Assembly (NCBI GenBank): GCA_951406725.2
Contig: OX597818.1
Location: 45,942,001-46,006,000, forward strand
Reading direction: 5' to 3'
DNA: 64,000 nt
From: Octopus vulgaris
Lineage: Eukaryota
Position numbers and translations under genes: made by a program. Position 1 is the first letter of the stretch. Every line of letters starts with the position of its first letter. Under the pieces are notes generated by a model, which saw nothing but the letters and a program-made list of their open reading frames with translations, was not told the origin of the DNA and searched no databases. Positions 48,969 through 51,900 of this stretch are shown one piece after another.

Positions 48969-51900
48969 CTGGAGAAGAAAAAGGTTAAACAAAATATGAA
49001 TGTATTTAAATGAGCAAGAAAAAAAAAAACATACGAGTAAAAGACTAGTTAAAATATAGTAACTAGATTTCCCCTTTCAAAATTAAAATCATGAAAATGC
49101 TCCTAAGTCCACAGATTTACTTATTCATTTCAAAACATTCATGTAAATTGTGCTTATTACATTGGTGATAACATGACTTTTGTAGCTAAACAAATATAGT
49201 TTGACATTATTTTGAGTAATACCAATCCCCACCCTTTTATTTTATATGGTGACTCTAAACCTGACAAACTTTCAGAGCAGTTTAAAATAAAAAATCTGAA
49301 AAAGCTTTGTACCATAGATTCTAAATCCTACATAACATCAAAATTTTACAAAACCAGCTTAAATTCAAAATTCCACAAAAACGTTTTCATTAGAAAATGG
49401 CAAAAAGTTTTGACAATCAAATACTGTATCTCCCTTGCAAATTCCAAATTCTATGGAAAAAAAAAATGGAAGATCGAAGAAGAATTTTTTTCTGCCATAC
49501 CACAGAAGCATAAAAGAAATAACTTAACATGCTTTATTGTGGCCATGGCACAATTTAATAATATAGAAACAATTACCTTTTCCAAATATTCCTCTTGCAC
49601 TCTCTGCCAATTGCATTAATTTAGGATTGATGACTTGGTTAGCTTCTTTAAGCACAGACATAAGGTCTTGTGCTTGTTTCATATTAGCAGGAGTGAAGAA
49701 AGTGTACGCAGTGCCAGTATTGTTGCTGCGAGCAGTTCGCCCAATACGGTGAACATAGTCTTCTGAGGTGGCCGGGTAGTCAAAGTTTATCACAAATTTT
49801 ATATCATCCACATCTGTAAAATTGTTACAGGGCATTGTTGGGAAAACCCCCATAACAAGAAGAAAGGCAGAATATTAGTAGGAATAAGATTTATTTGCTT
49901 TTAACTGAAATCAGAAGAGCCAGTTATGTCTATTCATGAAATACTATGAAACCAACAAGAATGCACACTCCCACAAGCTTGACAATTTTAACTTTGAACA
50001 AATTTTAGTTAGGGCCAAGAGCTTACCCTGGGTAAGAAAAGTAGTTAACTTACCTTAATTGCTGCCATCTTACCTGCAACCCCAGGGTGTTTACTTCCTG
50101 TCCCCAACTTAAAAATTCACCTGAACGTCCAGGTTAGTAGTAACCAATTGAAAGAGGGAGCATGCATCTGGCTGGTATCGGCAATTTGCTCTCTCTTCTT
50201 GAATGCTTTTGTTTACAGTAAAACCAAGAAAAGGTTTAACACAATAACTGTGTGGTGACTATTAAACTGTCAGTGAAGAGACAGTAACTGCTGGCCGTGT
50301 GTGGTGAAGGCTAGCCTGCTAGAGGCTAGACATTTGTTATTTGCGTCGGTCACATATCCGAGTACATGTTTATGTAAGTCTAACAAGATACCCTTCAGCT
50401 GTCAGCTCAGCATGCAGGAAGCAAAGTCCCATATGCAGTTTTAAGAGTAAGCATTCCCTCTTTGCTGGCAGGTTTCCGACATGACTCCATCAGGACAGTT
50501 GACAAGGGAGAGATAGGAGTAGAGAAGTAGTCCGAGAAACCGAACTTTAACATCCGGTGAGTCACGGGCTGCAATGCTGAGAAGATAATCCTGGAAATTC
50601 ATAGTGAGGAGGTGGCTGCATTATCCAAACAAAAACATGACATTCTGTGTTGCTATGAATCAGGAAACACCACTGACAAGGATTAATGGTAAGTCCTGTG
50701 AGTAAATTCCAAAACATACTATCAATGATTAATATATAACTTTAATTTCTCAGATGACAAACAATCTAGCAATAAATCTTAAATTGGAGGCATGTTACTT
50801 AACACAATACAAGCAAAATTAACATTTGTCAAGTAGGAATAAGTAGCGGCCAACTGCATAAATTATAAAATCACATAGAAAGACATTAGATGAAAGAACC
50901 AATAATAGAACTTAGTTTGCTACAAAATAACTAAAAAAATTTTAAGGTAATCTCATGTAACTTAGAGGATTAATTCACTATGGACAATCTATACCTGCTT
51001 TAACAGGTTTAAACATGAAAACACTTTAATAGCCCTTAAATCAGTATACTATAACTTCTTGAAAATTACAAGTGGACAAAATATTTGTATGTGATAAATG
51101 TAATTTTACATCAACTTAAAAAGCAGTTAAACTCTATGAAAACACAAGAAAGGTTAACAAGGACTCAAACCTTGATTAAACATAACACAAACAATATGTC
51201 AAAAGTTATATTTACACACACACATTCACTTCTAACACATCTCCATTGTTTATTACTCACTGAAAAGCAAACAGCATCAGTTTATACCAATACCCAGCAG
51301 TTTCAATCTTAGGTGTTTCCAGACAGAATAGCAACACTCAATACTATATCTTACCAGATTTGTGTGAGAAAATCCTAGATCCAGGTCAGTGCCAGTAATG
51401 CATACTATTTTATTGCCACTACATTTTTTATTGAACTTGTGAAATGGGGACAAAAAAAAAAGAAAAAGAAAAAAAAAGTGTTTATCAAATAAAAAGGCAT
51501 TAACCCAGAAAATTCTGGTTAAAAAAAAAGAAAGAAAAAAGAAAAAAAGGGGGTGAAGCAAGAAGATGAAGTTGAAAGAAAGGAAAGCCAGTGCCATTTA
51601 ACTGTCCAAGACAGGTCTGCTGCTTGTGCAGGTCAAGTCTTGAAACTGGAACTTGTTCTCCAACATCACCACCTGAATTCCTCACGCCAGGTCGGGGGAA
51701 CTCAGCACTAAGAATCATCAAATTTATTATTTTCTGGATGTCAACAACTGAAGAGGAAAATTTCTGCACCTTCCCCTCAGCTCTTGAGAGTAGTCATGCC
51801 GGTCCAGCCTGCATCAGTAACTTTCTATGTTCCGCTGCCAAAAGAGACTTAGAACTTATTACTGCGACATAAAGCAGAAGAGTTAACAACCAAAGCAGTT

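Follow-up and report, generated by a model that had tools for sequence, protein, structure and literature searches.

A cluster of strong donor sites and a candidate decoy/poison exon in the conserved, retained intron 11 of the octopus DDX5 gene

Intron 11 of the DDX5 gene of Octopus vulgaris contains an element that is real, non-random and conserved, and that sits in a known autoregulatory intron. The element includes four strong donor (5′ splice site) motifs, which are probably the competing donor end of a cryptic decoy or poison exon that promotes retention of the intron. All coordinates refer to the window, i.e. the whole 64,000-nt stretch of DNA that was analysed.

The gene occupies positions 48211..63987 of the minus strand and encodes a DEAD-box helicase of the DDX5/DDX17 (p68/DBP2) type, with 13 exons and 746 amino acids. 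Its exons were rebuilt from the ATG at 63987 down to 48211, and the resulting gene model bears out the numbering of the intron as the eleventh in the first-pass annotation of this DNA. The translation of exons 2-13 is free of stop codons, and 729 of 729 residues agree with the DDX5 X1 record P0121 (named Octopus vulgaris/O. sinensis). When the exon-12 peptide was compared with the genome, the one strong match was the window itself and four others were at most 55% identical; judged by these matches, the gene is the only one of its type found in the genome. The parts of the gene discussed here are as follows (all on the minus strand; a slash marks a splice junction or its equivalent in the protein).

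52185..52244, minus strand: exon 11, 60 nt; its end falls inside helicase motif V (RGL/D).
49814..52184, minus strand: intron 11, 2371 nt; retained and conserved; splits motif V.
52179..52187, minus strand: true intron-11 donor, TAG/GTTTGT; weak, with a score of 0.2 and a U1 duplex of -7.8 kcal/mol.
49577..49813, minus strand: exon 12, 237 nt, with a pyrimidine-poor acceptor.

The splice sites are weak at both ends of intron 11. Only 10 of 17 positions are pyrimidines at the exon-12 acceptor (the second lowest of the 12 acceptors), and its AG-free zone of 82 nt is the longest. The spliced joint of exons 11 and 12 (49813/52185) is present in three of the four runs of the first contig set, and read-through from exon 11 into the intron meets a stop after 68 nt. 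Elsewhere in the window, near-identical open frames recur about every 3.3 kb (32934, 36186 and 39442, within about 31000-40800), which suggests, from the frames themselves, a local tandem triplication. Frames at 12514-13572, 40937-41386 and 45626-46951 appear transposon-like, the translations being judged by eye as a mariner-like transposase, a Tc1-like fragment and pieces of LINE reverse transcriptase.

Intron 11 is the ancient intron of the DBP2/p68 family. This intron is described as poorly spliced and as keeping both its place and its length all the way from yeasts to higher eukaryotes; it lowers dbp2 mRNA in Schizosaccharomyces pombe and may be autoregulated in Saccharomyces cerevisiae (PMC4695336). 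In human DDX5 it measures 1236 nt, with a retention of 0.11-0.26 in erythroblasts according to a table row of PMC4737145, and the same 1236 nt separate the 60-nt exon from exon 12 in supplement rows of PMC12894984.

The donor motifs of the octopus intron were scored with a human-type donor matrix rather than with MaxEntScan, and U1 duplex energies were also computed.

50115..50123, minus strand: donor motif 1, CAG/GTGAAT; score 4.6, U1 duplex -8.4 kcal/mol.
50089..50097, minus strand: motif 2, GAA/GTAAAC; score -0.2, U1 duplex -3.3 kcal/mol; background-level.
50068..50076, minus strand: donor motif 3, CAG/GTAAGA; score 7.2, U1 duplex -11.0 kcal/mol.
50048..50056, minus strand: donor motif 4, AAG/GTAAGT; score 8.6 (the top score among the listed sites of the gene), U1 duplex -10.6 kcal/mol.
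50021..50029, minus strand: donor motif 5, AGG/GTAAGC; score 4.8, U1 duplex -8.9 kcal/mol.

The first-pass annotation had described five regularly spaced donor motifs, 210-305 nt upstream of the exon-12 acceptor, three of which would match U1 better than the true donor. All five 9-mers are where it placed them (GT at 50120, 50094, 50073, 50053 and 50026), and three do exceed the six matches of the true donor (7, 5, 8, 8 and 6 matches, in transcript order). The distance was slightly misjudged, the sites lying 307-213 nt upstream of 49813. Four of the motifs are strong donors, whereas motif 2 does not rise above background and probably lies outside the element. The spacing of 20-27 nt is correct as measured over all five (26, 21, 20 and 27 nt) but becomes an irregular 47, 20 and 27 nt once motif 2 is left out; together with the score of motif 2, this rules out an array of five equal, regularly spaced donors.

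The four strong donors fall within 95 nt, and such a grouping within 100 nt is beyond chance. In dinucleotide shuffles of intron 11, at least four strong sites per 100 nt were reached in 2 of 2000 cases at a score of at least 3 and in 0 of 2000 at a score of at least 4.5, and none of 100 shuffles of the whole window, both strands counted, reached a four-site cluster. The window holds 78 sites scoring at least 4, among which the intron-11 cluster is the sole 100-nt grouping of this kind. The stretch is not a tandem repeat, so that an origin of the cluster from tandem repetition is ruled out.

The pattern of three GGTAAG in a short span is by itself no mark of function, because genome-wide it is commoner in the reversed control (2318) than in the true sequence (1920) and consists mostly of tandem repeats among the 100 matches listed, 68 of which belong to one array. 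Around the six matches outside arrays, the 50 open frames scanned (of 397) yielded only one reverse transcriptase, which gives no support to the idea that clusters of this kind are a sign of splicing-factor genes. Donor-like motifs are also densely grouped at G000:C1:103724243, C1:36279973 and C1:48232206, with no Pfam domain in the nearby frames scanned.

These genome-wide counts favour a reading in which the donors are passengers and intron 11 is conserved and retained for another cause, be it its weak ends, sites for protein binding or an RNA within it. The conservation of the whole 3′ 1.6 kb, including an invariant block without donors, points the same way, as does the finding, said to be that of Moore et al. 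in 2011, that human DDX5 intron 11 hosts a miRNA. The cluster itself, however, is not a repeat and is rare in shuffles, and strong donors that lie shortly before an acceptor without being used should disturb splicing unless they are controlled. Against an intronic RNA, there is no Rfam match (0 at E<=1) and the conserved blocks contain neither a long single hairpin nor a miRNA-like one, which discards a known RNA family or a miRNA or snoRNA host. On balance, passenger donors seem quite unlikely. In the 5′ half of the intron, a compact hairpin of about 20 bp with a 6-nt loop (51745-51795) is the most stable single hairpin found there.

If the four donors are instead the end of a cryptic exon, an acceptor is expected upstream of them. 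No strong acceptor is present upstream of the cluster, the best candidates having 12-13 pyrimidines of 17. The signals found there and within the cluster are listed below.

50379..50405, minus strand: candidate cryptic acceptor 50379; branch-like CTGAC, then ttgttag/A; cassettes of 259-353 nt.
50266..50283, minus strand: candidate cryptic acceptor 50266, tgtctcttcactgacag/T; cassettes of 146-240 nt that reach a stop 5 nt in.
50133..50139, minus strand: perfect branch-point-like TACTAAC, 13 nt ahead of donor 1; one of two minus-strand copies in the window.
50027..50048, minus strand: acceptor-like signal within the cluster (TTAAC, pyrimidine tract, cag/G), one base ahead of donor 5.

Candidate 50379 has a well-placed branch-like motif and sits at the end of a 286-nt invariant block, and three substituted places occur near candidate 50266 in one relative. 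Whichever of the 24 listed upstream AGs is joined to the donors, the cassette carries an in-frame stop, which on inclusion would come ahead of later junctions, as in a poison exon; a coding exon at the cluster is ruled out by the same stops. The acceptor-like signal at 50027-50048 might, together with donor 5, form an exon of 1 nt or act as a recursive-type site.

It is also conceivable that the donors are masked by RNA structure, which DDX5 would unwind, an excess of helicase exposing them and leading to unproductive splicing. In the predicted fold, donors 1, 4 and 5 are paired, the last of them under an 8-bp helix, and all four strong 9-mers have a predicted accessibility below 0.02. A precedent is the plant helicase DRH1, which autoregulates through structure over an alternative splice site; the DEAD motif of DRH1/RH46 likewise lets a DDX5-like helicase limit itself by unproductive splicing, but it consists of a stem-loop that covers an alternative 3′ splice site close to the 5′ end of the gene (bioRxiv 10.64898/2026.01.23.701338), whereas the octopus fold is not significant. 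Its stability does not exceed that of shuffles (z -1.0, 25/200; z -1.76, 12/200), the stretch is invariant and hence offers no covariation, and G-rich donor motifs pair readily by chance. A structural switch of this kind is accordingly very unlikely.

Retention of intron 11 was followed in assembled RNA contigs. A 161-nt query from the cluster listed 24 runs, of which 19 hold all 13 sampled words (7 organism labels, 11 studies), and seven were examined, as assembled contigs only (X1, X2, X7, X9, X10, X16 and X19). The library type is unrecorded for the runs; spliced joints show that X2, X7, X9, X10, X16 and X19 contain mRNA. Intron 11, of more than 1 kb, is retained in contigs of X7, X9, X10, X16 and X19, with its level only hinted at. 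In X16, a 1916-nt contig has exons 8-11 spliced and then runs 633 nt into the intron, and in X9 a contig of 2440 nt spans the whole of it. Run X2 lacks cover over 49869-52039 despite holding the query words, which proves nothing.

Contig depth over intron 11 relative to its spliced joint was 309/584 (X7), 48/48 (X9), 39/33 (X10) and 431/489 (X19), and that of intron 12 was about 1% of its joint (X7, X2). These depths hint at a retention that is large and specific to intron 11, contigs being unable to measure its level. In a cuttlefish protein cluster, the 430-aa sequence P0127 ends with RGL-G and 14 unrelated residues, just past motif V. This ending would fit read-through of intron 11 in a decapod.

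The junctions from the five donors to 49813 that the first-pass annotation had proposed to look for did not appear: in the six contig runs covering the cluster, neither joints nor loose ends were found at any donor or candidate acceptor (thresholds 5% and 1%). This null is weak evidence, because rare forms are lost from contigs and transcripts that include the exon would undergo decay, and none of the six runs is known to be NMD-blocked. The missing junctions, with the want of a convincing upstream acceptor, are also what would be seen if the cluster were a U1-binding array without an exon. U1 is known to retain transcripts in the nucleus and to protect them from premature cleavage, and pseudo-donors that are never spliced could occupy the exon-12 acceptor, keep the transcript nuclear or shield the AATAAA at 49895, which lies 130 nt downstream within the well-conserved part. 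AATAAA or ATTAAA, however, occurs seven times in the AT-rich intron 11, and the parallels in the same intron of human and three other animals (see below) are real cassettes with acceptors. An array of this kind is considered unlikely.

Conservation was assessed among the holders of the query, which are close relatives, since their exons are 97-100% identical in the runs examined. In organism C, 64 of 662 letters differ in intron 12 (9.7%, with 27 gap letters), versus 20 of 1655 in the 3′ part of intron 11 (1.2%) and 16 of 652 in its 5′ part (Fisher p 4e-20 and 3e-8, respectively, against intron 12); 7 of 858 exon letters differ. In organism F, intron 11 aligns at 95-98% with 32 changes in 1348 letters (12 of 434 in exons), and in introns 8 and 12 the likeness breaks off. 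By these alignments, intron 11 is about as conserved as the exons among close octopus relatives.

Between 49831 and 50900 there are 21 substituted places across X1, X16 and X19, and none in X10. They are unevenly spread.

49903..50183, minus strand: invariant block with the whole cluster; 281 nt, 0 substitutions, one 1-nt insertion.
50184..50375, minus strand: more variable stretch; 192 nt, 13 of the 21 substituted places.
50376..50661, minus strand: upstream invariant block, outside the selection query; 286 nt, 0 substitutions, one 1-nt gap.

The variable stretch is possibly the body of the cryptic exon, the block borders having been set after the data were seen. The upstream block contains no donor motifs and no stable fold. 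The first-pass annotation had made conservation of the motifs in related species a test of its proposal. The motifs are unchanged among close octopods and the whole intron is kept at exon level, but the lack of change in the cluster itself is in part a circular finding, as presence of the cluster was what selected the runs (161 of the 281 nt are the query); at the 1.2-2.4% divergence of the intron, the chance of an identical 161 nt is 0.14-0.02 per species. Searches with translated intron-11 frames for deeper conservation gave no match, and look-alikes of the octopus stretch were absent from an index of other DNA stretches.

In human DDX17, a poison exon is recorded directly behind the 60-nt exon (chr22:38489223-38489458; PMC12894984, supplement file 10). 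With two acceptors and four donors within 61 nt, its length ranges over 175-236 nt. Inclusion of the main form is 0.7-0.9% in one, control-type group of samples and 89-99.5% in the other, which the text of PMC12894984 indicates to be the drug-treated one. The eight event rows for human DDX5 in the same source show alternative exon-12 acceptors only.

A metagenome scan for the same intron returned 80 loci, of which the best 28 were examined and 15, those with intron sequence ahead of exon 12, were scored. None of these 15 stretches, which come from distant eukaryotes and include three whole introns, has more than two strong donors per 100 nt, and none shows real similarity to the octopus intron (one 17-nt match, E 0.95). 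In three, from related animals, a conserved cassette of 194-211 nt was found in the orthologous DDX5 intron (L021:1705-1898, L022:1613-1823 and L024:454-661), with a fixed acceptor, a single donor, a drifting middle and stops; it is essentially the sole alignable block of the intron. The exon-12 peptides of these loci are 71-76% like annelid, brachiopod and limpet DDX5, and the alignments suggest that the cassette is likely an undescribed invertebrate poison exon. Its acceptor and the octopus acceptor 50266 are alike by eye, but not above shuffles (155-202 of 300). In L031 and L032, which are near-identical and GC-rich, six or seven strong sense donors versus one antisense lie dispersed 430-1430 nt before exon 12.

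The proposal of the first-pass annotation that the cluster could represent decoys or the ends of poison exons is thus favoured by the retention, the exon-level conservation, the stops in the cassettes and the DDX17 parallel, and is weakened by the lack of a donor junction in the contigs and by motif 2, which is not a real donor. A decoy/poison exon ended by the four strong donors would leave some of the transcript unspliced, with its rare included form passing to nonsense-mediated decay. U1 snRNPs may bind several of the sites at once, at intervals of 20-27 nt, and obstruct one another, with none leading to splicing. The stalled complex could then engage the exon-12 acceptor 213-307 nt away, blocking removal of the whole intron, and could also reach the exon-11 donor through the weak upstream acceptor. 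By analogy only, DDX5 itself may tune the switch; p68 reportedly acts at the U1-donor duplex, to go by the title of a study.

Several parts of this mechanism have precedents. Adjacent U1-bound donors inhibit each other, as cited in PMC3798272, and at spacings above 40 nt the downstream site is used productively, as cited in PMC5933811; three of the four octopus donors are 20-27 nt apart, which would explain why strong donors are left unused. Several competing donors are a stated feature of the ARGLU1, OGT and DDX39B decoys (PMC6097662), and mutating two downstream donors of the ARGLU1 decoy lowered retention (PMC5389617). A mouse study found no strong genome-wide link between cryptic exons and retention.

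A broader idea is that the decoy/poison exon predates the split of vertebrates and molluscs, a stop-bearing cassette of about 200 nt being shared by human DDX17, octopus and the three invertebrates, and that the U1 array at its donor end in octopus allows the enzyme to gauge its activity on U1-donor duplexes and to hold down the level of its mRNA. This is speculative and, taken as a whole, doubtful.

In the open literature, searched by title or start of abstract and with bioRxiv supplements excluded, no account of the element in cephalopods was found. Multi-donor decoy exons have been shown mainly in vertebrates, and a mollusc case would extend the mechanism to invertebrates. If the reading as a decoy/poison exon is true, one intron, regulated from yeast to human, would seem to have kept a regulatory role while its parts changed, from Mmi1 sites in fission yeast to a cassette exon in animals. 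An array as compact as this one, of four donors spaced by less than 40 nt, would also be a natural substrate for asking why crowded U1 sites block splicing.

The nearest known systems differ in what they share with the octopus intron. The DBP2/p68 introns of S. pombe (dbp2 intron 2), S. cerevisiae (DBP2) and human (DDX5) have the same position in the same family (PMC4695336, PMC4737145), and the intron is likewise long and poorly spliced and lowers expression (PMC4695336); S. pombe dbp2, however, depends on Mmi1 binding and exosome decay, and the available text of PMC4695336 describes no donor cluster. The exon 7a switch of SNRNP70 also has close-set cryptic donors of rare use, and inclusion was seen only after cycloheximide, but this is another gene, an upstream alternative acceptor is often used, and regulation depends on U1C (PMC3798272).

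Like the octopus element, the decoys of SF3B1, OGT and DDX39B (PMC6097662) and of ARGLU1 (PMC5389617) are highly conserved, lie in a large retained intron of an RNA-processing gene, contain several competing 5′ splice sites and bring in stops when included. Evidence for these decoys came from junction reads under NMD block, from U2AF binding and from minigenes, whereas the octopus exon is a candidate; the octopus donors are far stronger than the true donor, and the decoys were described in vertebrates (PMC6097662, PMC5389617). For DDX17, exon lengths of 66, 142, 161, 111, 62 and 60 nt are equal in human and octopus and the intron is the same; both exons would be about 200 nt with several competing donors, the human form being normally included at less than 1%. 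Exon 12 is about 1.1 kb away from the human donors, which are separated by 5-46 nt, versus 213-307 nt away from those of octopus; inclusion is shown in human for what is a candidate in octopus, and the likeness is one of position. Membership of the octopus element in this class is not proven; by analogy with these systems, its inferred function is likely that of a vertebrate decoy/poison exon.
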